Shown: one piece after another, positions 158 through 28,619 of the stretch
Layout of the letters: every line of letters begins with the position of its first letter
How positions within the stretch are numbered: the first letter of the stretch is position 1
NCBI GenBank assembly: GCA_034530875.2
Contig: JAVRCJ020000061.1
Span: 1-30,247 of the forward strand
Direction: 5' to 3'
DNA: 30,247 nucleotides
DNA from: Nostoc sp. DedSLP01
GTDB taxonomy: Bacteria; Cyanobacteriota; Cyanobacteriia; Cyanobacteriales; Nostocaceae
Notes under the pieces: generated by a model
The model's database searches: none
Told to the model about the DNA's origin: nothing
Seen by the model: only the letters and a program-made list of their open reading frames with translations
Translations under genes and position numbers: made by a program

Positions 158-664
158 CGGGTCTTTGTAAGGTGGCTAGAAGCTTTAGGTTGCAAAGACT
201 TCAGCTTTTGCATACTCGAAGTTTTTAAGGATGAGTAATTTTCACCAGAGACGAAAAGTTTTTCACAGACTTTAGCAGCTTTGAAGTAGGGAATGGAAGC
301 GACCCAAATCAACTACTACCATCTGAATTTCAAGTACTTCTGTTTTAAGTCGAGATTCTGGCGATCGCCAGCCCTGAAAACTTTGGCTGAAACTGTTATT
401 CTTTCGTCAACTTTTAAGAGATGTTGCACAGATAAGGTTGGGTTTCCTTGTTGAATTCAACACTTTGATAGGTTTTAGGCACTTCATAACTAAAGACTAT
501 GAGGCCAATTGTGACTGCAATTTAGCTCTTAGATGCTGTGCCCCAAGCAAAGTTAAATACAACTAGCCATTTTGGTAGGTAGAATTCTCTCCATTTTTCC
601 GATGCTATCTCTAGAGATAAAACGTCACGATATAAGCATCACAAAGATATTAGTGGAGAATTTT

Positions 665-1570
665 ATGTCTTCATTGCTGGCACTGTCTAACAATTTAGCC
701 GACACAGTGGAACAAGCAGGGAGTGCTGTGGTTGCTGTAAATGCCGGGAAACGCATTTGTTCTAGTGGTATTCATTGGCGTAATGGTATTATTATCACTT
801 CGGATGAGTCGCTTGGGCGTTATGAAGAAATCACCATTACTCTATCAGATGGGGAGACTCGACCAGTTTCTTTCGTCGGTCACGACCCTAGTACTGATAT
901 AGCTGTATTTCAACTGCAAAATCATGAACTCCCTGCGATCGCAATTGGCGATGGAACAAATCTCAAAGTCGGTCATTTGGTACTGGGACTAGCAAGAGGT
1001 AGTGAAGGTGATTTACGCGCAGCGATGGGAGCAGTAAGTGTAGTTGGTGGTGCGTGGCGGAGTATGAGTGGTGGTAATATCGATCAATTCATCCGTCCAG
1101 ATATTACTTTTTATCCTGGTTTTGCAGGCGGGCCACTCGTAGATGCGGCTGGTTATATAGTTGGTATGAATACATCGGGGCGACGGGGTACAGTTTTAAC
1201 TATCCCTGCTGCTACAATCGATCGCGTGCTGAATCAATTATTGACTAGAGGGCATATTTCACGGGGCTATTTGGGTGTGGGAATGCAGCCTGTACGCTTG
1301 CCTAGCAACCTGAAAACTGCTTTAAATTTAACTACAGCAACGGGGGTGATTGTCGTTAATGTCGAACCCTCTAGCCCTGCCGATAATGCTGGTCTGTTGC
1401 TGGGGGATGTGTTAGTAAAATTTGATGGTATTGCCGTCAGTAATACCGATGATGTGTTGGCACTGCTAAATAATAGCGATCGCATTGGCAAACAAATCAA
1501 GGTGCAGCTTGTTCGAGGTGGTGCATTAGTTGATTTAGATATCCTAATTGGCGAACGGCCTGCTGAGTAA
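665..1570 (+). CDS. HtrA/DegP-like trypsin (S1C) + PDZ protein, predicted catalytically inactive
   Basis: Trypsin fold motifs DPSTDIAV and GGPLVD..G..VGMNT; PDZ GYLGV...PSSPADNAGL..GDV. ITSDE replaces TNAH and PGFAGGP replaces GNSGGP. ATG at 665 (GGAG upstream) preferred over TTG at 572. Confidence 0.88.
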   Translation: MSSLLALSNNLADTVEQAGSAVVAVNAGKRICSSGIHWRNGIIITSDESLGRYEEITITLSDGETRPVSFVGHDPSTDIAVFQLQNHELPAIAIGDGTNLKVGHLVLGLARGSEGDLRAAMGAVSVVGGAWRSMSGGNIDQFIRPDITFYPGFAGGPLVDAAGYIVGMNTSGRRGTVLTIPAATIDRVLNQLLTRGHISRGYLGVGMQPVRLPSNLKTALNLTTATGVIVVNVEPSSPADNAGLLLGDVLVKFDGIAVSNTDDVLALLNNSDRIGKQIKVQLVRGGALVDLDILIGERPAE

Positions 1571-1596
1571 ATAATTACCGCTTAATCAAGGAAATC

Positions 1597-2412
1597 ATGA
1601 TTACACAATTAAATGATGAAGTCTCAGCAGTAGCCGCTACACTGCGTCAAAGCACAGTCAAAGTTAAAAGCGGTAGTGCGGGAGTTGGTTCTGGCGTTAT
1701 CTGGCAACCTGACGGGTTGATTATTACTAATGCCCATGTAGCAACCAGCAACCGGGCAACTGTAGAATTATCTGATGGTAGAGTATTTCCAGCAGTGCGA
1801 TCGCACTTTGACCCCCAGCAGGATTTAGCAGCGCTGAAAATTAACGCCACGGATTTAAAGACTGCAACTATCAATGATGCTGATAAATTACGAGTTGGGG
1901 AAGTAGTCTTAGCAGTAGGAAATCCTTTAGCTGATAGTGGTGCAGTCACAATCGGCATTGTTCACACTAATCATCCACGGGCGGTAATTGCAGATTTACA
2001 GTTGTATCCTGGTAATTCTGGCGGGCCGATGGCTGACTGTCTGGGCCGAGTGGTTGGCATTAATACGATGATTGTCAATAATTTGGCTGTGGCGATTCCT
2101 AGTAGTACTGTCAACCGCTTTTTACGTAGTAGTCATCGTCTGCAATTGGGAGTGACACTGCAATCGGTGGTCTTAAGCAGACGCACTCTAGGTTTGCTAG
2201 TGTTATCAATAATTCCTGGCAGTGTAGCAGAAAATGTGGGATTACAAATTGGTGATGTATTAGTTGGAGTTGCTGGGAAGGCTTTTACTCGACCTGATGA
2301 TTTGACTAAATATCTGCATCAAAGTTACAAGACTATTCCATTACAACTCCTGCGAAATAGTCAGCAATTGGTAGTTTACATCACCCCAAAAACTGCTGTG
2401 GAGGCGACATGA
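1597..2412 (+). CDS. HtrA/DegP-like trypsin serine protease with PDZ domain
   Basis: Intact triad: ITNAHV, DPQQDLA, PGNSGGP. C-terminal PDZ (LGV...PGSVAENVGLQIGDV). No signal peptide. AAGGA upstream of ATG. Confidence 0.92.
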   Translation: MITQLNDEVSAVAATLRQSTVKVKSGSAGVGSGVIWQPDGLIITNAHVATSNRATVELSDGRVFPAVRSHFDPQQDLAALKINATDLKTATINDADKLRVGEVVLAVGNPLADSGAVTIGIVHTNHPRAVIADLQLYPGNSGGPMADCLGRVVGINTMIVNNLAVAIPSSTVNRFLRSSHRLQLGVTLQSVVLSRRTLGLLVLSIIPGSVAENVGLQIGDVLVGVAGKAFTRPDDLTKYLHQSYKTIPLQLLRNSQQLVVYITPKTAVEAT

Positions 2413-3026
2413 TTCGGGTGATAGTGGTTGCTACTTCTCCCGTTGTACGCGCAGGTTTATCGGCGGTGGTGAGTAGCAATCCGCAGCTGACAGTTGTGGG
2501 CAGTGCATCTGATTTAGATTTAGTATCTAGAGAAGTTGAGCAACTACAACCGGATGTAGTTTTGCTCGATTTAGGCAGTAACCCAGAACTAATTTGGTCA
2601 AAATTGCAGTTAATTGCAGAACAGCAAATTATAGTAATTGCTGAAGATATCGATAGTATTGACCTAGAAACAGCATTTGGTTTGGGTATCCGAGGTGTAT
2701 TATCTAGTAGCAGTAAAGAGGCAGAAATTATTACAGGTGTTCAGGCAGTTGCTTCTGGTTTGGTAGTGCTGCACCCTGATGTTTTGGAATTGCTGCCGAT
2801 GCGGGAGAAAGTGGTAACTAACCCCGTGCAAACTTTGACTCCCAGGGAAATAGAGGTTTTAGGAATATTGGGTTATGGGTTGGGGAATAAAGCGATCGCC
2901 AAACGCCTGCAAATTTCCGAACATACGGTAAAATTCCATATTTCATCGATTTTTCAAAAGCTTGGTGTGTCCAGCCGTACTGAGGCAGTTACGGCTGGCA
3001 TCCGCTTAGGTTTGATTATGTTGTAA
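2409..3026 (+). CDS. NarL/LuxR-family response regulator with atypical receiver
   Basis: LTPREIEVL...GLGNKAIAKRLQISEHTVKFHISSIFQKLGV LuxR HTH; PDVVLLD receiver strand; ATGA overlap with the upstream protease. Confidence 0.93.
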   Translation: MIRVIVVATSPVVRAGLSAVVSSNPQLTVVGSASDLDLVSREVEQLQPDVVLLDLGSNPELIWSKLQLIAEQQIIVIAEDIDSIDLETAFGLGIRGVLSSSSKEAEIITGVQAVASGLVVLHPDVLELLPMREKVVTNPVQTLTPREIEVLGILGYGLGNKAIAKRLQISEHTVKFHISSIFQKLGVSSRTEAVTAGIRLGLIML

Positions 3027-13495: not shown

Positions 13496-14797
13496 CTAAA
13501 TTGGGAGAGTAATAATAAACTTCGTTCCCTTCCCAGAGATTGACAAGCAGTTAATTTGTCCATTGTGTTTATCGACAATAATTTGATAGCTGATAGCTAA
13601 TCCTAGTCCAGTTCCCTTACCCACAGGCTTAGTTGTAAAAGATGGCTCAAAAATTTTAGCTTGCACCTCAGGAGGCATACCAAGAGCATTATCTTCGATG
13701 CAAATTGTAACGGTTTTTTGGTGGTGATCGCACGATGTAGTAATAGTGATGGTGTAATCGCAAGCAGCTATCTCCCGCTCCGATCTGCTTTGATAAAGGT
13801 CATCAAATGCATCAATAGCATTAGCAATAATATTCATAAACACCTGGTTCAGTTGTCCTGGATAACAACTAATTGGAACTAACTCACCGTAATGTGTAAC
13901 AACTTCAATTTTAGGACGGTCTCCTTGGTCTTTGAGTCGGTGTTTTAATAACATTAAGCTACTATCGATTCCTTCATGAACTTGAAACTCAACCTGAGAT
14001 GAAATATCGGCTCGAGCAAAAGTTCTTAAAGAGAGACTGATATCCTTAAGACGATTAATTCCCTGCTCCATTGATAAGAGAAGTTTTGGTAAATCTTCAG
14101 CCAGATACTCTAGGTCAATTTCTTCAATAAGTTCTTCAATTTCTGGATCTGAGTTTGGTAGCTTTTGCTGTTGCAAATTCACCAAACGAAGCAGATCCTT
14201 TGTATATTCCTCAATATGGGAGCAATTTCCACTAATAAAACCAATTGGGTTATTAATTTCATGACCGATCCCTGCAACAAGTTGTCCAAGAGCTGACATT
14301 TTCTCACTCTGGATTAGTTGTAGTTGGGTTTGTTGTAACTGTTGTAAAGATTCGCTTAATTCGGCAGTGCGTTCTTGTACCCGTTGTTCTAATGTCCGCG
14401 TCAGATGGGAAATTTTCAGGTGTAACTTTAATCGAGCAATTACTTCTTCTTGTTGAAAAGGTTTGGTAATGTAGTCAACCGCACCAATTTCCAGCCCTTT
14501 CACTTTGTCTGTGGCATCCGACAAGGCACTCATAAAAATGACCGGAATGCTCTTAGTTATGGCATTGGCTTTCAGCCTGCGGCAAGTTTCAAACCCATCC
14601 AGACCTGGCATCATAATATCGAGGAGAATCAGATCGGGATGGGCGTATTCTATTTGTTCGATCGCCGACTCTCCATCGGTTGCCATGAGCGCTTTCCAAC
14701 CACATCCTTGAATCGCTTCAGATAGCACTTTCAGATTATTTGGATTATCGTCCACCAACAAGATATGCATTGGCTGCAAAAGAGTTTCGGTCATCAT
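13496..14797 (-). CDS. Hybrid histidine kinase (N-terminal REC, HisKA, HATPase), no sensor domain
   Basis: [50 protein letters not shown]. 4-bp overlap with the upstream CHASE2 kinase. Confidence 0.93.
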
Positions 14798-17655
14798 GAA
14801 TGTGACTCCGTTGTTACAAATGATTTGAGGAACTTACGGATTTTGGCGGTCTGGAAGTTGGCAGTGAGTTTGTTTAACTCAGTTGCGAAAGGAGTTAACT
14901 TACTGTCTTGCTCCATTAACTCTTTTATGGTTCCCTCAATTGCCGGAATATCTCCCATCATTGCCAGATGATAAAGTTGTTGCAAAATATCTTGAGACGG
15001 CAAAATTAATTCAGTATTATCTACTTGCTCATTCTTGCTCAATAATTGCTGCGGTTTAGATTGGCTATAGATCCAGTCAACTTTTAGTAAGGAACCCAGC
15101 GCATTGAAAAGTTCATCAATTTGGATGGGTTTGGGCAAGAATGCTGTTGCTCCTGCTTGTAAACTCCGTTGTCGATTTTCTTCAAATACACTGGCACTAG
15201 AAACAATAATTGGAATCGAACGAGTTAGAGGATTTTCTTGTAAGCGAACCATCAATTCAAAACCATCCATATTGGGCATGGCTAAATCAAGCACGATCGC
15301 ATCCGGTTGATGTTGAGTTGCCATCTGTAGCCCATGTTTGCCATCGCTTGCTTCCAAGATTCGACAGCCAATTTCTTGTAGTAGAGCAGTCAACATAAAA
15401 CGATGATTGCGATCGTCATCGACAATCAGAATTTGTGGCGCGCTACCCCGAACCCCGGTGATTTTCTGATGGGTTGAGGCGATGGTTCCTGGATACCAGT
15501 CATGGGAAATTGGTACTGGTACTGTCAAATCCAACCAAAATAGACTTCCTTCACCCAAGCAACTCTGCACTTGAATTTCGCTGCCCATCAATGCCGCAAT
15601 TCTTTGGCTGATTGCTAATCCCAAGCCAGTACCTTCAGATTTCCGTCCAGCCTCACCTACCTGCTCAAAGGCCAAAAAGATTTTCTCTAATTGGTCTGAT
15701 GACATTCCAATACCTGTATCTTCAATCTGGAACCGAATCTTGGCGGTTGGTGATTGGTTATTGGAAGCGCTCAATGTTGAGTGTTGAGTGTTAACTGAGA
15801 AGTTATTCTGTTCGTTCTCTTGTCCACCCAGTAGATCTACTTTGAACGTCACGCTACCGTTATCTGTAAATTTGATAGCGTTGCCTAGTAAGTTGATTAA
15901 CACTTGCCGCAGTCGCTTTTCATCTACTTGAATAACAGCTGGTAGGCAATTATCTATTAAGACGTTAAATCCAATTCCTTTCTGCTCGGCTCGGATACTG
16001 CAAATCTCAGTCACACCATGTAAGAAAGTCGGCAGATGTACGTTGGTGGTAACCAATTCTAATTTCCGAGCTTCAATTTTTGAAAGGTCGAGAATGTCAT
16101 TGATTAGCATCAGCAGGTGAGAACCGCATTGGTAGATAATCTTGATCCCTTCGCGATTTTTATCTGTGAGGTTGGGCGATACCTCTAGCACCTGAGCAAA
16201 ACCAAGGATACCATTGAGGGGCGTGCGTAGCTCGTGGCTCATATTGGCTAAAAACTCGCTCTTTGCTTCGTTAGCAGCATCAGCAGCTTGCTTTGCCTCC
16301 AAGAGTTCGCTAGTTCGCTCTTCAACTTTGAACTCTAAGGTTTTGGAATAATCTAATAATTGAGCATTGGCAATTTCTAGTTGCTGATTCGCTTGTTCTA
16401 ACTTCTGTTGTTTATAGGTATTGATTGTGGCAATTACGCTGCTGATGAATGCAGCTAAGGCAGGTGTTACCGGAATCAGAATACCTTGTAACAACATCCC
16501 GTAGCCACCACCAATAAATGCACCAGTGATACCTACAGTTGCCCAAAGAATTTTGCCGCCTGGAATCTGCCACTTAGTACGCGTACTGACTAACCACCAA
16601 CTACCACTAGAACCGACAAAAGACCAGAAAATAATCCACAACGACACAGCCATACCAGAAACACCGTGCAGATTTGCTTTCCCTGTTTTTGCTCCTTGCA
16701 CCAGTTGATGGGCGATATTGGCATGGATAATTACACCAGGTGTAGGTTTTTGGGCAGAAATTAAGGAAGAACTAAACGGTGTGCTAAAGAAATCATTGGT
16801 ACTGGCAGCAGTCGATCCAATAAACACCATGCGATCGCGCATCAGATTTGCTGGAATTTTTCCTGCCAACACATCCCGCATCGCAACTGTGCGAAACGAT
16901 GCTTCGGAACCATACCAGTTGAGCAAAATTTGATAGCCGCCGACATCAGTATCGGCATAACCTGCTTCTTGATTTTGTAGTGGCAGGTAGATTTGATTGC
17001 CTAATCGATACTTCTGCTGCTTTTCGTCAACAGATTCTAACGTTATCTTTTCGGCTTCAAGGTACTTGAGGGCTACAAGAGTTGCCAGTCCTGCTTTAAC
17101 TTTGTCTTCTTCTTTAGCATCGGTTGCCGTCAGTAAGGCACGACGCACAAAGCGATCGCTATCCAACACCAAATCTGCCAAGCCTACGCGATCTGCTTTT
17201 TTCAATTCTGGTGCGGGATTGACACGCTCTCCAGTAATTTTCTCGACGCCAATCAAATTGGTATTGTCCCGAAAGACTTTCACAAGTTGCTCGTGTCCGC
17301 TGCCTTCTGGTAAATCTCGATAGAGATCCAAGCCGATGGCGCGTGGTTGTTGCGCCTGAATTTTTTCTAGTAATTGTGCTAGCGACCAATCTGGAATTGG
17401 CCATTTACCAACTGATTGGATATCTTGTTCGTCAATTGTAACAATGACGATTTCTTCAGCCATAGTATTTTGCCAACACCCAATAAGGGCGGGTGCTTCA
17501 CAAGATCGCTGTCGCATCCATTCATCACGAAGTTTCCACTCAGGCAAATTGAAAAGTCCCAACGACTGCGCCAGAAGAACTGTTAGGGCAACGCTGGGAG
17601 TAATAATCAAAACACTGCGAGAGCGTTGGATGAAAGTTTGGAATTTGCGCCACAT
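14794..17655 (-). CDS. CHASE2-domain hybrid sensor histidine kinase (TM-CHASE2-3TM-HisKA-HATPase-REC)
   Basis: [11 protein letters not shown]...[33 protein letters not shown]2 motifs; three TM helices; [15 protein letters not shown]-terminal receiver. Confidence 0.93.
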
Positions 17656-17819: not shown

Positions 17820-18740
17820 TTAATTCGCTGAGGCTACTAAGGGAACTGTTGCAATATCCTTTAAGCTAACTGACGACAGAAGTTCTTCCCATTGCTTGAC
17901 AATAGTTGCATTTTTGGGTTGGGCAGCGTGCAGTACAGCCAAGGTTGCCACACAGTCGTACCAGACTCCATTTTTACCAAAAGCAGCCGCACGCTTTAAA
18001 GCATCTTCCTGCTGCATTGCTGTTGCCAGTTCAGCAGTAGGCTGGATACGCTCAATCCAACCATCAACGTAAGGCGTACTTGGGCTGAGCGTTCCGTCCA
18101 CTTTCAATGCCAGGAACCACTGGTAGTTTTTACCAACGGCTAAAGCGGGTGCGTCGGCTGGTAATTTGATGGCGATGGTTCCAGCTTTTTGTGCTACAGG
18201 AATGCTCATTTGATACTGTGTATTGCCAGCTTCATCTTTAAGGCTGAACACAGCTTCTTGCGCATTAGAAGCGGGAAGGTACACCAGAATTGTGGGACGT
18301 TCGGACACGGTTGTGCCATAGAAGCTTTGCGGTAGGAGTGCAATTAGGGCTGCGGGCCCTCCTGCTGCTATAGTCGATGAATTCAAGTAGTAAGTACCTA
18401 CACGGGAAGCCCCTCCCGATGCTTGTCTGGGGGCGCTGTTACCTGGAGCAGGGGTAAAGAGGTTGCCGCGGGAAGCTCCTCCTGTTGCTTGTCTGGGAGC
18501 GCCGTTACCTGGAGCAGGGGTAAAGAGGTTGCCGCGGGAAGCTCCTCCTGTGGCTTGTCTGGGAGCGCTATTTTTAGAGGGCGGGGTAAAGAGGTTACCG
18601 CGGGAAGCTCCTCCTGTGGCTTGTCTAGGGGCACTATTTTTAGAGGGCGGGGTAAATGTTACAGCATAGGCACTAGCCCATATACTGCTAGCAATCAGAG
18701 CCATGATGCTCAATGCACTAGTTAAATATCGACGTTTCAT
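17820..18740 (-). CDS. Exported DUF928 domain protein with N-terminal tandem repeats
   Basis: Signal peptide MKRRY...ASAYA; GGASRG motifs; LIALLP...GTTVSERPTILVYLP, LAVGKNYQW, GWIERI, GVWYD, WEELL.SV.L. ATG at 18740 preferred over 18782. Confidence 0.88.
   Translation of the reverse strand: MKRRYLTSALSIMALIASSIWASAYAVTFTPPSKNSAPRQATGGASRGNLFTPPSKNSAPRQATGGASRGNLFTPAPGNGAPRQATGGASRGNLFTPAPGNSAPRQASGGASRVGTYYLNSSTIAAGGPAALIALLPQSFYGTTVSERPTILVYLPASNAQEAVFSLKDEAGNTQYQMSIPVAQKAGTIAIKLPADAPALAVGKNYQWFLALKVDGTLSPSTPYVDGWIERIQPTAELATAMQQEDALKRAAAFGKNGVWYDCVATLAVLHAAQPKNATIVKQWEELLSSVSLKDIATVPLVASAN
18402..18656 (-). repeat. 66-bp (22-aa) in-frame tandem repeat, ~3.9 copies
   Basis: FTPPSKNSAPRQATGGASRGNL x2, FTPAPGNGAPRQATGGASRGNL, FTPAPGNSAPRQASGGASR; DNA period 66 bp (18475/18541/18607). 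Confidence 0.97.
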
Positions 18741-18929
18741 GATCTTTGTCCTCATCTGATTCAACAGCGATCGAAAATACATTCAAATCACTGCACTAAA
18801 AACTCATGGAATACTTTTAAACGCTATTCAGATATGGGAAGGCTACTAGCATTTATAACCGAATTTCGATTCCAATTCCATAAATTCGCTGTTTTTTTAA
18901 GTGCATCTTATAGCAGTAATTATACGTAT

Positions 18930-21491
18930 TTAAAGCCAGTTGCCAACCAAAACAAAGGCAGACCAAAAAAACGGATCGCTAAAATCAGTTTGGCGAATTA
19001 GGTTAATTTGTGCCTGTCGTAGCGCTTCAGCTTTAGTGATTTTAGGTTGGCGTAGTTGGTCATAGAAGCGAGTCATGAGCATTTCGGCCGCTTTGTCTTT
19101 GACTGGCCAGAGTGTGGCAATGGTAGAACGCGCACCAGATTTGACAGCCAAGCCTGCTAATCCCAAAACGGCGCGATCGTCACCAGTGGCAGTATCACAG
19201 GCACTCAGTACCAATAATTCGATCGCTTTTGATGAATTACCACTACGATTTTTCAGGAGTTCGGACAACTCTTTGACACTAACTTGTCCGTCCCAGGTAA
19301 GTAAAAATGTATCTTCGAGACGAGAGCTAAACTGTCCGTGGGTTGCTAAATGGACAACATTGGCTTTACTAGATTTGATGCGATCGGCAAGGGCAAGATT
19401 TGTGAATTTTTGGTTGAGTAACATCGAAGATGGCACTGTTTCGGAGATTTCTTTGACTTCTGATTCCACAGCTGGCAAGGCACTAAAACCATTGCGAGAT
19501 TGACTAATACCGCCAACAACTGCATCAATCTGGTTTTGCTGAAACGATCGCGCCGCCATCAGTTGCAATCCCGGTGAGAGCGCCACAGCATATTTTTCAA
19601 TCAGATATCGATTACCGTCATACAAGGCTGCTATTGGGATGTTCCGCAACCGACCATCCAAAACAAATACTAATGTCTGAGTGTCTTTAAAGGCTCCATC
19701 TGCTTCTGCCGGACGAATCAGCCAGTCATAAATTTGCTGGGACAATCGCTCCCGAACTTTTGAGTCTGAAACTGGGTTGAGAGCCACGAGGAAGTTATCT
19801 AGAGTTTGCTCAATTTCAGCTTGAGATTTTTGAGTGGCATAATAACGCAGGGGTTGTCCAGCCTTGGAGAGAATTACTCCTAAGCGATCGCTTAAGATAA
19901 TCGGATAAATCACTGTTGCCGTGGAGTCAACTTTGTCAATCTGCTGTGCTTTATCTAAACAAGCTTCGCGGAAAAAGTTATCAAGTTCGGCGATTTGCAG
20001 TGACTCAATCAATTCCCGCGCTTGCGTTAATGCAGCCTGGGTTGGTTGCTCGTCCAGAAGTAAACTTACCAGTTCCCGATAGACAGGCTCCACACTTTCG
20101 CGGAAAGAAAACTGTACATCGGGGTTGACACCAACCATATCTGCTCGTAGTGCCTTTAATGATTTAACTGCTTCGGTATAAGCTGTAATTGCTTGTTGGC
20201 GATCGCCTTGTTGTTTGTACAATTTTCCTACCTGCCATGCTGATTGAGCGATCAGATCGTCAGCTTGGAGTTGACGGGCTATATTGAGAGATTTTTCAGC
20301 TAGTTCCTGTGCCTGGGGCCACTGTTTTGTATGGTTGTAGAGTTGTGCCCATTGATAGAGTGCATAAGCTTGGGCAGTTCCATCCTGAATTTTTTCGGCA
20401 GACTTAACTGTATCTGCCATAAGTTCTGCCAAATCTTTGTTTGGTAAAACTCGCTCTGGATTTTCCAAGCGATTTAAGGTGGCGACAAAATTAATTGCTG
20501 CATTCAAGGAACTATGACTGGGTGCTAATTGTGACAACTGTTGTCGTAATTGGGGTGCTAGGGGAATGGCATATTCGAGTTTGTCGTAATCCACTAATAA
20601 TTTGAAATGGGCTAAACGCGCTTGTAAAGCTTCATTGGGGTTTGTAGCTGCTGTTTGGGCATCTTCAAAGTAATTTAATGCTGCTTCTGGGTGGTGAAAG
20701 TCAGCAGCAACTTTCCCTAAACTCGAAAGAATGGAACTTAACTCGGTTTTAGCGGCAATTTTGTTGGCTGTGGCTAGACTTTGTTCTAAAACTTCCTGGC
20801 TTTGAGGATCGCCGATGGCGTGCAAAGCTAAACCAAGCGATCGCAACCCACTAACTTTAACTTCCGAATCTGGCATTGCTGAAAGCTTTTGCGTCAGCGC
20901 TTCTAACTGTTGTTTGGAACGACGGTAAAATCCCAAACTTTGTAAGGCTTGTGCCTGGTTGATTTGACTGCCTAAGCTACCGATTGTATCGCCTGAGCGT
21001 TCGTAATATTTTTGAGCTTGTTGCCAAATTTCTATGGCGGTTTCAGCTTTATCTGTACGTAGTTTTAAATTGGCTTGAGTATTCAGTATTTGCGCCCAGA
21101 TAATCGCATCGGCAGAAGGTTTAGCCGTTTGCAAAATTTTTAGGCTTTGTTCGATAGATTGTCTAGCTGCTTCCCACTGGTTGAGTTCCTGTTGCGCTAA
21201 CGAGAGGTAACTCAAACTCAAGGCTTCGTTGGTGCGATCGCCTTGACTATGGTAATTTTGTACTGCCCTTTGCCAAGCCGTCGCGGCTTCACTAAAGTTG
21301 CCTGAACTGTACAGTTTCCGCCCCTGTTCTAGCCAATTAGTAGATTCGGAAGTAGATACTGACACATTCAACGCAGAATTAGTTGCTACGCTTACACTTG
21401 CTCTAGCTGGGGTAATTGTCACTGCTAAACACAAGCTCAAAATACTCAGACTGATATATAACCAGCGATGTCGTTTAATTTGCAAATTCAT
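18930..21491 (-). CDS. Exported TPR-CHAT (caspase/HetF-like) protease
   Basis: Signal peptide ending PARA-S; TPR-like helical repeats; catalytic VVHLATHG and LLVLSACDTA; ATLWPV.D, KAEALRQAQ, PFFWSAFVLVGNWL. Confidence 0.93.
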   Translation of the reverse strand: MNLQIKRHRWLYISLSILSLCLAVTITPARASVSVATNSALNVSVSTSESTNWLEQGRKLYSSGNFSEAATAWQRAVQNYHSQGDRTNEALSLSYLSLAQQELNQWEAARQSIEQSLKILQTAKPSADAIIWAQILNTQANLKLRTDKAETAIEIWQQAQKYYERSGDTIGSLGSQINQAQALQSLGFYRRSKQQLEALTQKLSAMPDSEVKVSGLRSLGLALHAIGDPQSQEVLEQSLATANKIAAKTELSSILSSLGKVAADFHHPEAALNYFEDAQTAATNPNEALQARLAHFKLLVDYDKLEYAIPLAPQLRQQLSQLAPSHSSLNAAINFVATLNRLENPERVLPNKDLAELMADTVKSAEKIQDGTAQAYALYQWAQLYNHTKQWPQAQELAEKSLNIARQLQADDLIAQSAWQVGKLYKQQGDRQQAITAYTEAVKSLKALRADMVGVNPDVQFSFRESVEPVYRELVSLLLDEQPTQAALTQARELIESLQIAELDNFFREACLDKAQQIDKVDSTATVIYPIILSDRLGVILSKAGQPLRYYATQKSQAEIEQTLDNFLVALNPVSDSKVRERLSQQIYDWLIRPAEADGAFKDTQTLVFVLDGRLRNIPIAALYDGNRYLIEKYAVALSPGLQLMAARSFQQNQIDAVVGGISQSRNGFSALPAVESEVKEISETVPSSMLLNQKFTNLALADRIKSSKANVVHLATHGQFSSRLEDTFLLTWDGQVSVKELSELLKNRSGNSSKAIELLVLSACDTATGDDRAVLGLAGLAVKSGARSTIATLWPVKDKAAEMLMTRFYDQLRQPKITKAEALRQAQINLIRQTDFSDPFFWSAFVLVGNWL

Positions 21492-21545: not shown

Positions 21546-24008
21546 CTATTTAGCTACAAGTGCAGCACAGGTTAAAGGCGATCGCACATTAGTGGGTGAT
21601 TGTGCTGCAACTAACTCAACTTTTCCCTGGGCGTTACGATGCCAAGAAGTAGCTTGGATAAGAGTTTGCGAAGATGAGGGTTTTTGAGCTTGTGTTTTGC
21701 GGAATGCCCAGACATCACGCACATCAAGCCAAGTGCGATCGCTCCTTACTTCCTGTGTAGGATTTTGCGGTACACCACCGCGTCCCGTAGCCACAAATTT
21801 ACTGCTGTCATCGCTGGCGCAACCTGTAGCAATTTGCTGCGATGGATCTGTGACATTTGCGGGTAGTTCAATTAAGCCAGAATTAGGATCGACGCCGATA
21901 TTATTGATTTGGACTGTGCCACTAACACCAAATTGGGAACTCGCAGTAATGTCATTTTCTGGGGTGAGTGCGGGACGAAATTGCAATCCGATGATGCCCT
22001 GAGTGGTGATTTGAATATTGCCACCCCTTCCTCGGACTGCGTTAGCAATAATGTCGCTGTTTTCTAATCCGACAAAAATCGGAGCATTGATATTAATATT
22101 ACCTCCATTACCATTACCGCCTGCGGTGGCTGCGATCGCGCTATTACCACGCAGCATTAACAACTTCCCTACTTGTAAGGCAAGATTACCGCCATTACCT
22201 GATTCTGTCTGTGCCTGGATGCTTGCTTGACGGTCTAAAAGGATGGTATTAGCTTTGATATTCAGAATGCCACCATTGCCGCTACCTTGGCTAGTAACAC
22301 TTACAGCACCACCATCTCTCAATATCAGGTTGGGCGTGGAGAGGTTCGCATTACCGGCATTAGCAGTTAGTAGATTTGGCAGGCCAAATATTCGCTGTAA
22401 TTGCGGGGGTAAGTGCAGAACAGATGAGTTAATACTGCTGTTATTACTCCGACTGCGGCCGCTAATCTCGATTGATTCCGTGGCATTAATGTTTAAATCG
22501 CCCCCATTACCTGTAAAGAATGTAGTTGCCGCAACTACTCCCCCATCAAGAACTTGTAACTTAGCAGTATCCAGCGTCAAAGTTTTGGCGTTTCCGGTAG
22601 CCAACGTGGTTGAGCTAATGTTGCTGTAGAGTCCGAAGGGATTTTCTCCCATCACAGTAGTACGATTGTTGCGAATTGTGACTTGACCGCTAGAACCACT
22701 GCCAAACGTAGCTGAGGACAATGAAGCTCCACTTGATAGTACTAAACTATTGCCATTGACGAAGATATCCCCTGCATTCCCTGAAGCATAGGTAACGGAG
22801 GTAAGATTGCTAACACCAGTAGGTTTGATTGGCGAAAAGCCAGATATGTCAATTGCTGCCGCCTCAATCTGGATGTTGCCACTCGCACCTCTTCCCAAGG
22901 TTACACTATTCAATCCTGCTCCCTTCTGGAGTGTCAGCCGAGGAGTAATAACGTTGATATTACCACTAGTTCCCATAGCTAAGGTTTCAGCGCGAATCCC
23001 ACTGGCAATTGCCTTATCATCTGTGCCAATCAGATCTATCGCTGCTGATGCTTGCAGGTGAATTTCTCCAGCAGCTAAATAACCGAAATTTTGTGACAGT
23101 AGCAGCGAACCATCAGTAAATTTAATATGTTGCCCTTGAACCTGTACAGAACCAGCATTGACTCCACTAACGTCCAATAGTGACTTTTGTGCTAGCTGGA
23201 TATCGCCAAAGCTTTGCCCATTTTCATATCCCAAGGTATAGCCCTGTAGTGTTGGTATCAAGCGGACTAGCCCTGCACCACTTACACTGCCTAATTCTAT
23301 TCGCCCTTGCTTGGCAGTTAGGGTTGCCCCATTCAGATCCAAATTTCCGCCCACCAAAGCAAGGGTTTGCCGTGGCTGTACCCGCAGTTCGCTAACGCTG
23401 GGAGCCACAACGATAGGAGGCTGTCCAGTCGGATTGCTCAAGGAGTGTCCTGTGCCTTGAACGCCGATCGATGCAGGATTAGTACCCATTTGCAAACCAA
23501 TGGGAACATTGATGCTCAATAGTGGCGTAGTTTGGGAATTAATCGCCCTAAACTCGATACCATCGCTAAATTTAATACTGTCAGCAGTTGTACCAATAAA
23601 CGAACCCCCGATGTTGAGTTGGGCGTTGGCTCCAAAGATAATGCCGCTAGGATTGATTAAAAAAAGACTAACGGGGTTGTTGCTGTTAATCGTCTGAATC
23701 AAACCATCAATGTTAGATAGATTACCACCTGTGACACGGCTGAAGATGGTAGAAATCTGAGGCGTGTTGACTAAATCAAAAGTAGCTGAACCTTTCGTGG
23801 GAATCGAGAACTGCTGGAAACTATGAAATAGATTGCTGTTAACAACACTACCATTGGTAATAGTAAAGTTATTGCCTGTTTGAGAAACTGTAGTATTGAG
23901 AGTGCCATCTGGCGTGACCTGGGCATTGGCAAAACCGCACCACAGAAATATCCCACCTGTCAAAACTCCATAAATTAAATTCCACCAAACAGAGGGCGCT
24001 TTCATCAC
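21546..24008 (-). CDS. TpsA-type filamentous haemagglutinin-family exoprotein (copy 1)
   Basis: Signal peptide ending ANA-Q; TPS domain NLFHSF, RVTGG, NPSGIIFG; G/N-rich beta-helix repeats. Start at GTG 24008 or ATG 24005. Confidence 0.92.
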   Translation of the reverse strand: MMKAPSVWWNLIYGVLTGGIFLWCGFANAQVTPDGTLNTTVSQTGNNFTITNGSVVNSNLFHSFQQFSIPTKGSATFDLVNTPQISTIFSRVTGGNLSNIDGLIQTINSNNPVSLFLINPSGIIFGANAQLNIGGSFIGTTADSIKFSDGIEFRAINSQTTPLLSINVPIGLQMGTNPASIGVQGTGHSLSNPTGQPPIVVAPSVSELRVQPRQTLALVGGNLDLNGATLTAKQGRIELGSVSGAGLVRLIPTLQGYTLGYENGQSFGDIQLAQKSLLDVSGVNAGSVQVQGQHIKFTDGSLLLSQNFGYLAAGEIHLQASAAIDLIGTDDKAIASGIRAETLAMGTSGNINVITPRLTLQKGAGLNSVTLGRGASGNIQIEAAAIDISGFSPIKPTGVSNLTSVTYASGNAGDIFVNGNSLVLSSGASLSSATFGSGSSGQVTIRNNRTTVMGENPFGLYSNISSTTLATGNAKTLTLDTAKLQVLDGGVVAATTFFTGNGGDLNINATESIEISGRSRSNNSSINSSVLHLPPQLQRIFGLPNLLTANAGNANLSTPNLILRDGGAVSVTSQGSGNGGILNIKANTILLDRQASIQAQTESGNGGNLALQVGKLLMLRGNSAIAATAGGNGNGGNININAPIFVGLENSDIIANAVRGRGGNIQITTQGIIGLQFRPALTPENDITASSQFGVSGTVQINNIGVDPNSGLIELPANVTDPSQQIATGCASDDSSKFVATGRGGVPQNPTQEVRSDRTWLDVRDVWAFRKTQAQKPSSSQTLIQATSWHRNAQGKVELVAAQSPTNVRSPLTCAALVAK

Positions 24009-24224: not shown

Positions 24225-26687
24225 TCAGTTGGCAACCGCAGCACAAGTTAACTGCGACTGTACTTGTTTGAGAGATGGGGTTGCAACTAACTCAACTTTG
24301 CCTTCAGCATTCCGATGCCAAGAAGTAGCTTGGATGAGAACCTGTGCTAATGTGGGTGCTTGAGTAATTACATCACCCGTTTTTTTGTATCCAGAGATGT
24401 CCCGGATGTCAGACCAAGTGCGATCGCTAATCACCTGTTGATTCGGATTTTGCGGCGCACCGCCCCTTCCCGTAGCTATAAAACGACTACCTTGATTTGC
24501 CGAACAACCTGTAGCAATTTTTTGAGATGGATCGGTGATATTTGTTGGCAGTTCTACTAAACCCGAATTTGGATCGATACCGATGGTATTGACTTGAACT
24601 GTGCCACTTAAGCCAAATTGGGAACTGGCAGTAATATCATTTTCCGGCGTCAATTGGTCGCGGTACTCCAGTCCTAAGATGCTTTGAGTGGTGATTTGGA
24701 TATTGCCACCCCGTCCTTGCACAGCGTTGGCAATTATATCGCTGTTTTCCAGGCCCACAATCACGGGCGCATCGATCGCAATATTGCCACCATTGCCACT
24801 ACCACCTGCTTCAGCACTGACGAAACTACCATTGCGCATTAACAATATGTCTCGCAGTTGCAGATTGATGTTGCCTCCTTCTCCAGCTTTTGTCGATGCT
24901 GAAATGTTTGCCCTATTGTTGAGTTTAAGAGTATTGGCATTAATTTGCAGAGTGCCAGCTGTACCAGAGCCAAGGTTTTGCACAAAAACCATTGCACCAT
25001 CACTAATGTTAAAAATTGGGGTACTAATAGTGGTATTACCTGCATTCGCCCTGGAAATTTTACTAAACAGACCAACAGGACGAACAGCCGTACCAATATA
25101 GCTGGGATTTTCTGCATCTTTTACACCACTAACATGAATCGATTCAGAGGCATTGATAGTCAGGGAACCCGCATTTCCTAAAATTATGCTAGAAGCAGAC
25201 ACTCTACCACCACCTTCCACTGACAGCCTGCGGGTATCGATTTTCAGATTCCCTGCATTACCAGACCCGAATGTGGCAGTAGAAATGAGACTAAAATAAC
25301 TACCGCTTGGAGTTCCCGCATTTGTCACCTGAATTGTATCTGCATTGACAGTCAAATTGCCGCCTTTGCCAGAATTATAAGGTCTGGCTGCTATATTAGC
25401 TCCAGCCGAAACAGAAAGGTTTTGAGTGGAAATGAAAATATTTCCACCATTTCCACTGGCATAGGAAGCGGCTAATATTTGGCTTACCGAGCGAAATGGA
25501 GAAGGATCGCCAAATGCAAAACCGTTGACTCGCATTTCATTAGTATTTACTACAATATCGCCAGCCGACCCTGTGCTAAAAGTACGGTTAAAGATATATC
25601 CACCGCGATCGATATTCAATTTTGGAGTCGTAATAATCACATTTCCTGCCGCACCAGTAGATGTAGTTTCATTCACTAAACTGCTGGAACTCTTAAAATC
25701 AGGAGACTTACCGATGATATCCAAGAACTCTGTAGCATTAATTGTAATATCACCAGCAGTTTGGTTACTGCGATTTTGTACTAATATCAGGGAACCATCT
25801 CGAATGCTCACCTGTTTACCTTGAATTTGGATGGCTCCTCCACTTCCTCCACTGAGATCCCGTGTAGATGCTAAAGCTCGTTGGCTGATTGCAATATTGC
25901 CGAAACTCGATCCATTGGGATAAGTCAGCGTCAATCCTTGAGGGATGAAATTGAGAGCGACGTTGGTGTTAGTAATGCTACCGAGTTCTATTCGTCCTCC
26001 TGGTGCGGAGAGTAAGCCTCCATCCAAGGCAATATTTCCACCTACTAATGCCAGGGTTTTTTCAGGTTGCAGCTGTAATCCTCTTGTACCCAGGTTCAAT
26101 CCAGAAACCTGAAGCGAGTCGCCTAATTGGGCATTGTGTCCTGCTCCTTGAGAGGTAATTGGCCCTGGATTGCTACCAAATTGCAAGCCAACGGGGACGC
26201 TGATAGTCAATAAAGCAGTCGGTGATATGGCATTGGTTGCACTAAATTTCAATCCATCCGCAAATACTACGCTATTGGCAGTTGTCCCTACAAAGGAACC
26301 CCCAATACTCAATTGAGCATTAGACCCAAACAGAATACCCGCAGGATTAAGCAGGAACAAGTTAGCACTACCGTTGGCGCGGATTAGCCCATCAATATTG
26401 GATATGCTACCACCTGTGACGCGGGCGAAGATGTTTTGCACATCGATGGAATTGTCGAACAGGGCAGAACCACCCGTAGGTATAGAGAATTGACTGAAGC
26501 TATGGAATAGGTTATTGCCGCGCTGGTTACCGTTGCTGATGGTAAAGTTATCGCCATTTTGGGAGACTTTGGTGTTGAGGGTGCTGTCAGATGTCACCTG
26601 GGCGTTGGTAGCATTGCACCACAGGAGTATACCAGCCAAAGCTATTCCACTTCTCAATATGCTATTTACCAAGCTGATTGCTTTCAT
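24225..26687 (-). CDS. TpsA-type filamentous haemagglutinin-family exoprotein (copy 2)
   Basis: Signal peptide ending TNA-Q; NLFHSF, RVTGG, NPAGILFG; beta-helix repeats; C-terminus similar to copy 1. Confidence 0.92.
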   Translation of the reverse strand: MKAISLVNSILRSGIALAGILLWCNATNAQVTSDSTLNTKVSQNGDNFTISNGNQRGNNLFHSFSQFSIPTGGSALFDNSIDVQNIFARVTGGSISNIDGLIRANGSANLFLLNPAGILFGSNAQLSIGGSFVGTTANSVVFADGLKFSATNAISPTALLTISVPVGLQFGSNPGPITSQGAGHNAQLGDSLQVSGLNLGTRGLQLQPEKTLALVGGNIALDGGLLSAPGGRIELGSITNTNVALNFIPQGLTLTYPNGSSFGNIAISQRALASTRDLSGGSGGAIQIQGKQVSIRDGSLILVQNRSNQTAGDITINATEFLDIIGKSPDFKSSSSLVNETTSTGAAGNVIITTPKLNIDRGGYIFNRTFSTGSAGDIVVNTNEMRVNGFAFGDPSPFRSVSQILAASYASGNGGNIFISTQNLSVSAGANIAARPYNSGKGGNLTVNADTIQVTNAGTPSGSYFSLISTATFGSGNAGNLKIDTRRLSVEGGGRVSASSIILGNAGSLTINASESIHVSGVKDAENPSYIGTAVRPVGLFSKISRANAGNTTISTPIFNISDGAMVFVQNLGSGTAGTLQINANTLKLNNRANISASTKAGEGGNINLQLRDILLMRNGSFVSAEAGGSGNGGNIAIDAPVIVGLENSDIIANAVQGRGGNIQITTQSILGLEYRDQLTPENDITASSQFGLSGTVQVNTIGIDPNSGLVELPTNITDPSQKIATGCSANQGSRFIATGRGGAPQNPNQQVISDRTWSDIRDISGYKKTGDVITQAPTLAQVLIQATSWHRNAEGKVELVATPSLKQVQSQLTCAAVAN

Positions 26688-26798: not shown

Positions 26799-28619
26799 TC
26801 ACAATGCTGAATACCGCACCGAGAAGTACAAACCATTTTCCTGGAGCGATCGCTTTTCATCGTCTACCGATATCAAGGGAATACCCCAATCGACTCTCGC
26901 AGATAATTTATCGCTTTGTTGCCACAACAGCCCTAACCCAGTACCTACCAACGTACTAGGTGATGGATTGTCGCCCTTGGTATTCCAGCCTGTACCCACA
27001 TCAATGAATGGTGTCAGTTGTAGTACTCCTCCTAGTTTGGAGGCACGTACAATGGGCAACCGGAATTCAGCTGAAAACAACATTCCATTATCTGTGAGTA
27101 ATGCATCCTGGCGATAGCCCCGCACGCTCAGCTGTCCGCCAAGGCCAAATTGTTCTAAAGGCACGAGGGAATCTGCTGCTAGTTGTAAATCACCTCTAGC
27201 TAAAAACAGAGTGTCTGGTGCGAACTGCCGCACCCATTGGGCTTGCCCCCGCCAAGCAAAAAAGCGACTATCAGGGGCATCTCGATTGACATTGGCATCA
27301 AACCAATCTACCCCGACGCTAAATTGCGATCGCGCTGCAAAAACTTGTTTGCTGTTGCGTTGCGTATACTCTTGAGTAAAACGCAACGCAGAGATTTTGG
27401 TTTTGCCGTTGGCATCTGCACCAGGCGATAAAGGAAAGCCGCCAATATTATCCAGACCTAACTCTGTTTGGCTTTCTTCGCGTGAGAATGATACCCCCAC
27501 AGCTAATTCCTGAGTTGGCTTTTGCACTAACGGTTGCCGATAACTGAATTCGTAAGATTTACTGTTTGACTGAATATCAAGAACGTTGAATGGTTTTTCA
27601 ATTACGCGGTTCCACCCTTGGTTAAAACCAAAGGAGACAGTGCCATTGCGAGCATTAATCGGCAATGTGTAATTGAGATTGATTGTATTACTGCCATCTG
27701 TATTGGCATATCCCACACTCAAGGTATCGCCAAAGCCCAGTAGATTGGCTTCTTGCACATCCACACCGCGACGAAAACTGCCAACACTAGGCGATCGCCC
27801 ATTATCTAAAGTTGTTGTCAGTGAGAAAGTATCGGCTTCTTGAACCTCGACTTGTAATATATTGCTTCCAGGACGTACACCCATCTGCAACTCAGCTGAT
27901 AGGTTTTGAATGTGCGGATCGAGGCGCAGCAGTTGCAGTTTTTCTATTAAACGAGGCACATTCAGAGGGGTTTTGGCACCGAGTCTGATGCGATCGCGAA
28001 TGTATTGACTGCGCAATCGACGATTGCCGACGATTTTAATTTCTTCCAAACTGCCTTCGACTACCTGAATTTTGATAACTCCAGCTTCTAGTGTCTGCGG
28101 TGTAATTAAAGCCCCAGTAGTTACATAGCCTTTATCTGTGTAGAGCTTGGCGATCGCATCTTTGACTTGTAACAACTCTGTAAATGATACTTCCCGCCCA
28201 ACAAAGCCGGCCGTAATCGCAGCAAAATCTTCTGGTTTGAAAACTGTACTGCCAACAACTTCAATGCGATCGACTTGGAATTTAGTATTAGGATCGTCCT
28301 CTCCTACAGCCGGCCGATCCGGTAATTGTGGGGAAGGAAGTAATTGATTCTGCTGTGATGACTGCGGTAGTACATCCCCAGATAAAGGAGTGGTAGGGAT
28401 ATCTTCTATCCGACCAGGTGGTAGCGTTTGCGGATTAGAAGTTTGGGCATAGGCGCAGTTCGTCGTAGATATGGCTTGATAACAGTTGCACAATACTGCC
28501 AGAACAATGCCCAATCTTAAAGGTCTAAGTGTTACTATGCGAGGTTTAAGTTGCTGTCTTTGCGTATAGTTAATTATAGATGCTGTATTCAGATTTAATA
28601 AGTATAAATGCTTACGCAT
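26799..28619 (-). CDS. ShlB/FhaC/HecB-family TpsB outer-membrane transporter
   Basis: POTRA motifs (IEVVGSTVF, LY.DKGYVTT, IQVVEG), SVRGY lid-lock motif, C-terminal beta-barrel. Start codon uncertain. Confidence 0.93.
   Translation of the reverse strand: MRKHLYLLNLNTASIINYTQRQQLKPRIVTLRPLRLGIVLAVLCNCYQAISTTNCAYAQTSNPQTLPPGRIEDIPTTPLSGDVLPQSSQQNQLLPSPQLPDRPAVGEDDPNTKFQVDRIEVVGSTVFKPEDFAAITAGFVGREVSFTELLQVKDAIAKLYTDKGYVTTGALITPQTLEAGVIKIQVVEGSLEEIKIVGNRRLRSQYIRDRIRLGAKTPLNVPRLIEKLQLLRLDPHIQNLSAELQMGVRPGSNILQVEVQEADTFSLTTTLDNGRSPSVGSFRRGVDVQEANLLGFGDTLSVGYANTDGSNTINLNYTLPINARNGTVSFGFNQGWNRVIEKPFNVLDIQSNSKSYEFSYRQPLVQKPTQELAVGVSFSREESQTELGLDNIGGFPLSPGADANGKTKISALRFTQEYTQRNSKQVFAARSQFSVGVDWFDANVNRDAPDSRFFAWRGQAQWVRQFAPDTLFLARGDLQLAADSLVPLEQFGLGGQLSVRGYRQDALLTDNGMLFSAEFRLPIVRASKLGGVLQLTPFIDVGTGWNTKGDNPSPSTLVGTGLGLLWQQSDKLSARVDWGIPLISVDDEKRSLQENGLYFSVRYSAL

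Follow-up and report, generated by a model that had tools for sequence, protein, structure and literature searches.

A tandem peptide array in a DUF928 protein of Nostoc sp. DedSLP01: a candidate multi-copy precursor of arginine-ended ligands for a CHASE2 receptor

We analysed a stretch of 30,247 nucleotides of Nostoc sp. DedSLP01 (contig JAVRCJ020000061.1 of assembly GCA_034530875.2, positions 1 to 30,247 of the forward strand; hereafter the window) and, within it, a gene for a DUF928 protein whose N-terminal part consists of tandem copies of a short peptide unit. The genes around it lie on a single strand in the order TpsB, TpsA, TpsA, TPR-CHAT, DUF928, CHASE2 hybrid kinase, REC-kinase (Table 1), that is, the transporter and exoproteins of two-partner secretion (TPS), a caspase-clan protease, the array protein, its predicted receptor and a second kinase which is the probable next step of a phosphorelay. 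A scan for promoters and terminators gave chance-level numbers (31 against 30.7 and 13 against 14.7, respectively). The Pfam DUF928 model (PF06051) matches residues 123-315 of the 320-residue open reading frame (ORF) with an E-value of 1e-57 and 195 bits against a curated cut-off of 26, and starts within the fourth unit, at its last five residues (GGASR). The database form of the protein has 306 residues and begins at the second methionine (position 18740), the likely start. Among named genomes, its nearest relatives belong to Nostoc species, with at most 92% identity over the DUF928 domain.

Table 1 Features of the DUF928 locus in the window (↓ marks a putative cut site)
Feature	Position	Strand	Basis or remark
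DUF928 gene	17820..18782	(-)	ORF of 320 residues from first ATG; Pfam DUF928 match
Sec signal peptide ending AYA, predicted	18663..18740	(-)	by pattern alone
Unit 1, 21 residues, PSKNS type, end GGASR↓G	18600..18662	(-)	translation
Unit 2, 22 residues, PSKNS type, end GGASR↓G	18534..18599	(-)	translation
Unit 3, 22 residues, APGNG type, end GGASR↓G	18468..18533	(-)	translation
Unit 4, 22 residues, APGNS type, end GGASR↓V	18402..18467	(-)	translation
DUF928 folded part: immunoglobulin (Ig)-like beta-sandwich and helical TPR-like subdomain	17823..18401	(-)	model, fold search
TPR-CHAT caspase-clan protease, signal-peptide-like N-terminus	18930..21491	(-)	His718, Cys765, Glu678, Asp799, Trp795
CHASE2-HisKA-HATPase-REC hybrid histidine kinase, predicted receptor	14794..17655	(-)	domain match
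REC-histidine kinase overlapping the stop codon of the CHASE2 kinase	13496..14797	(-)	domain match
TpsA-type exoprotein 1	21546..24008	(-)	C-terminal motif, Arg codon 21780-21782
TpsA-type exoprotein 2	24225..26687	(-)	same C-terminal motif, Arg codon 24465-24467
TpsB (POTRA-ShlB) outer-membrane transporter	26799..28619	(-)	domain match

Tandem Repeats Finder reported a sole array in the whole window, with a period of 66 nucleotides, 3.4-3.8 copies and 89% matches, and the translated units end in GGASR at residues 61, 83, 105 and 127 of the ORF. The preliminary description of this DNA had spoken of four 22-residue units, each ending GGASR↓G. The four GGASR ends stand, and the two types of unit (PSKNS twice, APGN followed by G or S twice) agree with the translation; the first unit counts 21 residues after the predicted signal cut, and the fourth Arg is followed by Val, so that the Arg-Gly bond at all sites had to be given up. 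The orthologues follow the same rule, with Gly after Arg at 280/282 inner junctions and at 0/76 last junctions. Over their last 19 codons, units 1 and 2 differ by 3 synonymous and 0 non-synonymous changes, and units 3 and 4 by 3 synonymous and 2 non-synonymous ones.

The signal peptide is predicted to be cut between AYA and VT, a placement supported by the A-x-A before the first unit in 111/120 homologues. Judging from these sequence patterns, export via Sec is likely; Tat export is unlikely, because the twin Arg is not conserved (just 55/120 homologues). It is also unlikely that the array is an assembly artefact, because in other species the orthologues have 3-9 copies, their lengths differing in steps of 22 residues. 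Contig pieces from three DNA runs of one study tile the array without joints, none of them spanning it. RNA structure was considered as the cause of the repeat and rejected, the array RNA folding no better than its shuffles (z = +1.37). AlphaFold predicts the array to be disordered, with a beta-sandwich and helices behind it. In sequence, the protein shows two marks of a multi-copy peptide-signal precursor, an export signal (by pattern) and tandem units each closed by a conserved basic residue.

Copies were counted in the best 120 of 580 homologues of the window protein. Their number varies among orthologues, as had been expected, from 3 to 9 with a mode of 5, and protein lengths step by 22 residues. 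In 78 of 80 orthologous loci the Arg is kept at 362/363 unit anchors, the exception being a false anchor in the signal peptide, and all six Arg codons occur at this position; the invariance of the Arg, raised beforehand as a point to check, is thereby upheld. Between genomes (352 units, 77 loci), the ratio of non-synonymous to synonymous polymorphism (pN/pS) is 0.037 for FTP, 0.058 for P-x-QA and 0.058 for GGASR, compared to 0.63 for the six middle residues of the unit. The unit ends are under strong purifying selection while the middle drifts, which bears out the earlier proposal of selection on the peptide.

By alignment, the window unit is the ordinary N-terminal motif of DUF928 proteins, multiplied in tandem. 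In the same genome, 11 aligned paralogues, 21-31% identical to the window protein, carry one motif copy each with an invariant Arg. DUF928 counts 7,273 representatives at E ≤ 0.001. Among 150 representatives with less than 50% identity, the Arg is found in 143/149 aligned rows, preceded by Ser or Thr in 116/148 and followed three places later by Cys in 145/148; the earlier statement that many DUF928 proteins have one such motif is thereby supported. In distant relatives (n = 120, a few of them named from Verrucomicrobia, Rokubacteria and Deltaproteobacteria) the motif reads Y-x-PP-x-RG-x-P-x-x-R-x-GGG-(T or S)-R↓G, and an N-terminal motif (F or Y)-x-PP...GG-x-(S or T)-R is common to the window protein and the single-copy ones. 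When 135,131 six-frame segments were searched with a profile made solely of single-copy relatives, the window protein obtained 21.0 bits (E = 0.0026), and no reversed control exceeded 8.9. The nearest single-copy relatives of the clade with arrays (the repeat clade) have a very similar unit, and two motif copies in 9/146 representatives point to duplication in other lineages too.

Several side observations concern this motif. His-ended copies recur across lineages (P0143, P0159, P0202, P0205; L310) and may be a second specificity class. The repeat clade is devoid of both Cys kept by the single-copy relatives, one after the Arg and one in the beta-sandwich, which suggests that a disulfide link between motif and domain has been lost. 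A locus may also carry several motifs through DUF928 proteins with two domains or through paired DUF928 genes in tandem (P0121, P0122, P0135, P0140; L057, L063, L084, L097). In the same genome, an ORF of about 148 residues with a signal peptide (G000:C36:66110-66589, plus strand) immediately precedes a DUF928 gene; the DUF928 motif stands close to the C-terminal end of its product, with a tail of 11 residues behind it, and the DUF928 body is absent.

The motif is also found at the end of free-standing short proteins. In the same genome, a 78-residue signal-peptide ORF (L181:4814-5050; G000:C5:216814-217050, minus strand) lies directly behind a CHASE2-PAS-GGDEF gene, convergent with a probable L-aspartate oxidase gene (FAD_binding_2), and ends Y-x-PP-x-x-GGP-x4-GSGTR-stop. 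It matches neither Pfam nor NCBIfam, and NCBIfam has a model neither for DUF928 nor for three such peptides tried. The ends of these peptides were counted with a DNA pattern demanding neither Arg nor stop, which listed 74 places in 301 genomes. The 56 places read comprise 39 with Arg followed by the stop, 11 with Arg and a tail, 3 with other ends and 3 out of frame; 18 of the 74 lie outside this count, the second batch having been picked by an in-frame look with the following bases unseen, and the tally was merged by hand, one of the 39 being a DUF928 protein with a C-terminal motif. In this connection, a DUF928 protein (L240:1494-2852, minus strand) has a degenerate N-terminal motif and a full motif copy at its very C-terminus, Arg being followed by the stop. 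When 20 further regions were approached from the receptor side, 8 more peptides appeared, ending at the same position in Arg (6), His (1) and Met (1).

Many of the free peptides are encoded next to a related CHASE2 receptor. In the first 20 loci, for which the search had required the stop, CHASE2 is encoded just upstream in 16, and CHAT, TpsA or DUF928 within about 8 kb in 0. In a sample of 201 genomes, a verified Arg-stop peptide is present in 23, all 23 of which encode the full-length receptor, itself present in 41/201. In a quick tree these receptors form one branch grouping with the DUF928-linked CHASE2 proteins, the repeat clade included (Shimodaira-Hasegawa-like approximate likelihood-ratio test, SH-aLRT, 100); this tree omits 22 of the 36 repeat-clade rows. 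A profile built from the free peptides alone reaches at least 5 bits in 76/120 distant DUF928 N-termini, compared to 0 shuffled ones. Among 40 neighbour proteins scanned around free peptides without an adjacent CHASE2, no other common receptor appeared. A second type of short ORF (L283, L285, L288, L290, L291, L292), of 46-74 residues with a signal peptide and not beside CHASE2, has the motif immediately behind the hydrophobic stretch, and its Arg is followed by a tail that varies.

We examined the neighbourhood of DUF928 genes at several scales. In the repeat clade (80 orthologous loci), the CHASE2 kinase lies downstream in 77, the 3 misses being contig ends, TPR-CHAT is present in 77 (two contig ends and one true loss) and TpsA in 63. 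The true loss is L123:3275-10236, where TpsA is followed directly by a five-copy DUF928 gene and then by the CHASE2 kinase. Within 12 kb of the 12 DUF928 genes of the same genome, CHASE2 occurs at 10 and TPR-CHAT at 8. For 60 family-wide loci of other cyanobacteria, hand-picked from the 150 best of 378 matches, CHASE2 was found within about 10 kb in 44, TPR-CHAT in 21 and neither in 13. At closer range, CHASE2 is within 1 kb of 45/63 DUF928 genes, in agreement with its earlier naming as the likely target, and TPR-CHAT within 1 kb of 11/63 only. CHASE2 is the constant partner of DUF928; the protease is a frequent one, nearly fixed in the repeat clade. On 32 metagenome contigs with distant DUF928 genes, many of them short, CHASE2 occurs on 13 and CHAT on 6, and two contigs are ordered TpsB-CHAT-CHASE2-DUF928. 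Four DUF928 paralogues (L002, L004, L005, L008) adjoin N-terminal CHAT-CHASE2 fusions, with DUF1822 nearby; the CHAT of such fusions is probably a cytoplasmic output of the receptor. A sequence search of the PDB with CHASE2 gave no relevant match.

The TPR-CHAT protein of the window has an intact His718-Cys765 dyad, and its model matches SAVED-CHAT, Csx29, DdvA and MALT1, i.e. the caspase fold; by sequence, a PDB search with the CHAT domain gave no relevant match and a profile search two unrelated weak ones. The His, Cys, Glu and Asp are kept in 78/78 full-length repeat-clade copies, and His, Cys, Glu678, Asp799 and Trp795 are invariant in 28 diverse TPR-CHAT copies. Glu678 is placed by the model on helix 1, and Trp795 and Asp799 on loop 5; Glu678 and Asp799 are candidate S1 acids, assigned by alignment and from their place in the model. 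Both are shared by a protein of the same genome which we take, from its layout and Cys position, to be the probable HetF orthologue, and 3/22 other aligned CHAT domains are devoid of one or both. In clan CD, S1 specificity depends on helix 1 and on loops 4 and 5, where MALT1 and gingipain, both specific for Arg, have acidic residues (PMC4357240), and HetF cuts PatU3 after Arg117 (PMC9457339). An Arg preference of the window TPR-CHAT is, on these residues, a good inference. Of the earlier proposal that the adjacent CHAT is the processing enzyme, the intact dyad and the predicted preference hold; an obligate partnership across the family does not, given the 11 of 63 genes with TPR-CHAT at close range.

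The co-encoded TpsA exoproteins carry a conserved C-terminal motif, C-x(3-14)-F-x-x-TGR↓GG-x-P-x-x-P, in 74/81 cases in clade loci L101-L180 under a strict pattern, with one Lys variant. It is present in 12/16 TpsA proteins of the same genome and absent from two TpsA-CHAT fusions. From its sequence it is a candidate for a second Arg site or for a trigger that binds the TPR.

The folded body of the DUF928 protein resembles the C-terminal domain of MtxA (PDB 4Z29), with a Foldseek E-value of 6e-6 and, in VIA-align, a Z of 10.8 and a root-mean-square deviation of 3.9 over 150 residues, the sole Z ≥ 8 among 48,161 chains. The window protein has no match to the Pfam MtxA models PF22121 and PF22433, and a PDB sequence search with DUF928 gave no relevant match. 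As far as the model goes, DUF928 and MtxA have the same two-subdomain fold and are separate sequence families. Pfam MtxA_C matched 0/151 cyanobacterial genomes, a scan in which the controls were likewise without match, and all leads of an Atlas search stayed under 0.9, one cluster, partly labelled MtxA, reaching 0.75. MtxA of Magnetospirillum gryphiswaldense has, like the window protein, a signal peptide, an Ig-like plus TPR-like C-terminal domain and a gene that precedes a CHASE2 receptor, here an adenylate cyclase, and a trypsin-sensitive linker lies ahead of its C-terminal domain (PMC4439547). It differs by its low identity (11-12%) and by a folded N-terminal domain in place of the peptide array; the source reports no phenotype for its deletion (PMC4439547).

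Taken together, we incline, slightly beyond even chances, to the view that the window protein is a multi-copy precursor from which released peptides with a C-terminal Arg would bind CHASE2. A peptide with a free C-terminus is the simplest account of the active species, because the Arg stands in every unit, Gly follows it at the inner junctions, an Arg-type protease is adjacent and there are relatives that stop at the Arg. The preliminary description had also considered a neo-terminus as the CHASE2 ligand; the Arg-terminated free-standing relatives favour a released peptide instead. The precursor would be exported by Sec, and the neighbouring TPR-CHAT would cut behind each GGASR to give peptides of 21-22 residues with the C-terminal Arg free. 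Three or four peptides per precursor would then reach the adjacent hybrid kinase at its outer CHASE2 domain, and their binding would switch on its phosphorelay, activation being presumed rather than inhibition. The Ig/TPR body may present the tail to the protease or hold it until processing; cutting at the final R↓V site may be slow, or its unit may stay on the body; and extra copies would raise the peptide yield per precursor. As proposed in the preliminary description, copy number might also tune the gain of the signal, and the variable residues might determine specificity. The weakest and most speculative step is that the protease would be switched on via the C-terminal tails of the co-encoded TpsA exoproteins, a gating by which the system would report the state of the surface layer.

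A wider form of this proposal, which we hold tentatively and at somewhat less than even chances, is that the CHASE2 domains found in this lineage act as receptors of short peptides, rich in Pro and Gly, whose C-terminal Arg is free. The DUF928 proteins would be latent pro-ligands, unmasked by an exported caspase-clan protease gated by TPS exoproteins, the GSGTR-stop genes would encode ligands that are pre-cut, and the array would be an amplifier.

A number of observations weigh against the processed-peptide proposal. The position of the Arg is His in 4/149 and Gln in 2/149 relatives, several of the additional copies seen in other lineages have a terminal His or no Arg, and the last unit is damaged in two orthologues (P0034, P0113). 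The R117H substitution in PatU3 blocks cutting by HetF (PMC9457339); CHAT enzymes are not uniformly Arg-specific, Craspases cutting after Met or Leu (PMC11506125) and a Runella CHAT enzyme after Leu (bioRxiv 2021.06.07.447441). The link to TPR-CHAT is loose family-wide, DUF928 tracking CHASE2 instead: the Arg is kept in 43/44 DUF928 proteins without TPR-CHAT in the fetched stretch (a figure in which five regular-expression misses were corrected by eye), and the locus that lost its protease retains five copies. With 35 CHAT matches in the same genome, action in trans is conceivable. Among the free peptides, 11 are tailed after the Arg and three end in His, Met or Tyr. In a wider 40-locus set, CHASE2 is found within about 8 kb at 1 and CHAT at 2. 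The free-peptide profile reaches at least 5 bits in just 11/120 repeat-clade proteins, compared to 1 shuffled, and the top 28 rows of the DUF928-motif profile do not include the free peptide of the same genome. Moreover, the free peptides amount to about one evolutionary event, because they mostly belong to one orthologous family and their receptors to one branch.

Some of these observations would be expected if the motifs were never cut, which is the foremost alternative. The intact protein would bind CHASE2 by its Arg-ended tail, the copies would add avidity or cross-link dimers, and the protease would serve the TpsA proteins or end the signal. The far better tracking of CHASE2 than of TPR-CHAT by DUF928, the retention of the Arg where no protease adjoins, the His-ended and tailed variants and the Arg-Gly site that TpsA itself offers all agree with this explanation. 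We nevertheless consider it unlikely: 39/50 Arg-bearing free-standing matches stop at the Arg exactly, and the variants with His, Met or Tyr come to their stop at the same position, suggesting that a free C-terminus is required. The near-fixed Gly after the inner-junction Arg and the protease retained in almost all repeat-clade loci are likewise difficult to place in a protein that is left whole.

We regard it as improbable that the array regulates TPR-CHAT and not the receptor, as a bait, a competitive inhibitor or a TPR-binding activator whose copies set a threshold. Most DUF928 genes have CHASE2 but no TPR-CHAT nearby, and TPR-CHAT adjoins 0/20 of the free peptides of the first set, against which stand a tail that is predicted to be disordered, carries a terminal Arg and fits the predicted S1 pocket, and the position of the DUF928 gene directly behind TPR-CHAT in the repeat clade. 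An Arg-inserting inhibitory loop is on record for gingipain (PMC4357240).

Little credence can be given to a signal formed by the remaining Ig/TPR body, whose new N-terminus would bind CHASE2 once the units were discarded as an inhibitory pro-region. The single-copy relatives do keep G-x-C after the Arg, with the Cys in nearly all of them, and the fold homologue MtxA likewise neighbours a CHASE2 gene; however, the repeat clade has neither the Gly nor the Cys behind its last Arg any more, the free peptides lack a body altogether, and a discarded pro-region needs no FTP in every copy, where pN/pS is lowest. Neutral expansion of a flexible linker is hardly credible, since both unit ends are constrained (pN/pS 0.04-0.06) under use of all six Arg codons and the motif was duplicated in other lineages as well, even if copy number varies, the region is predicted disordered and the unit middle drifts.

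Two further candidates were set aside. Self-cleavage of the FecR type at Gly-Ser/Thr does not fit units that are predicted to be disordered, the occurrence of Lys at this place and free peptides that end after the Arg. The PatS and PatX heterocyst-pattern peptides carry a five-residue Arg-ended HetR-binding motif, which is not matched by units ending GGASR.

In yeast alpha-factor with Kex2, Bacillus Phr and streptococcal ComC/ComD, an exported precursor, proteolytic release and a membrane receptor are combined, and the alpha-factor precursor has tandem copies, as in the window array. By analogy, the window system works like such processed-peptide signalling and is built from different parts, namely a caspase-clan protease, a folded C-terminal body and a Gram-negative periplasm; the likeness does not imply an expected homology.

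The HetF-PatU3 pair of Anabaena PCC 7120 is alike in that a cyanobacterial CHAT protease cuts one partner after Arg; it differs in that the CHAT is separated by a membrane helix from periplasmic TPRs and destroys an inhibitor (PMC9457339), whereas the protease of the window is predicted to be exported as a whole, with a receptor ligand as its predicted product. The Myxococcus xanthus pair DdvA-DdvS likewise uses a periplasmic TPR-CHAT in envelope-crossing signalling, and its structure 8ROT is among the fold matches; here DdvA itself is an anti-sigma factor of the membrane, for which self-cleavage is proposed, and there is neither a separate peptide precursor nor CHASE2, as far as described in the parts consulted (PMC11506125). 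The same sensor domain occurs in CyaD1, CyaD2 and CyaK of S. meliloti, which with NsrA respond to a protein signal through an outer-membrane protein (PMC13001267), and Leptolyngbya Dgc2 has the CHASE2-PAS-GGDEF layout of the receptors beside free peptides (PMC10581220). DUF928, a protease or a self-made peptide are unmentioned in the consulted parts of both studies (PMC13001267, PMC10581220). EACC2-caspase systems with DUF1822 and an extracytoplasmic function (ECF) sigma factor correspond to the CHAT-CHASE2 fusion loci beside several DUF928 paralogues, the CHASE2 domain being taken there as a small-molecule receptor (PMC8195603). DUF928 itself is found in the literature as a CHASE2 neighbour and in the acid-stress response of sll1891 (PMC5587647). 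In the literature searched, most subscription papers lying outside it, there was no description of a CHAT-DUF928-CHASE2 module.

CHASE2 is widespread and feeds kinases, adenylate and diguanylate cyclases and caspase fusions; its ligands were called unknown in 2023, in a paper where the Leptolyngbya CHASE2 receptor suppresses motility and biofilm formation (PMC10581220). The locus supplies a candidate ligand of 22 residues with an exact sequence, a candidate for the maturing enzyme whose catalytic and pocket residues are named, and, in the pre-cut relatives, natural controls. If the proposal is true, it would give the CHASE2 sensor family a concrete ligand, DUF928 a function and many exported TPR-CHAT proteases of filamentous cyanobacteria a substrate, and in its wider form a widespread, undescribed bacterial system of protease-activated peptide signalling would come into view.

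Elsewhere in the window, at positions 572-3026 and outside the module, two neighbouring trypsin-PDZ (HtrA-like) protease genes are followed by a gene for a LuxR-type regulator.

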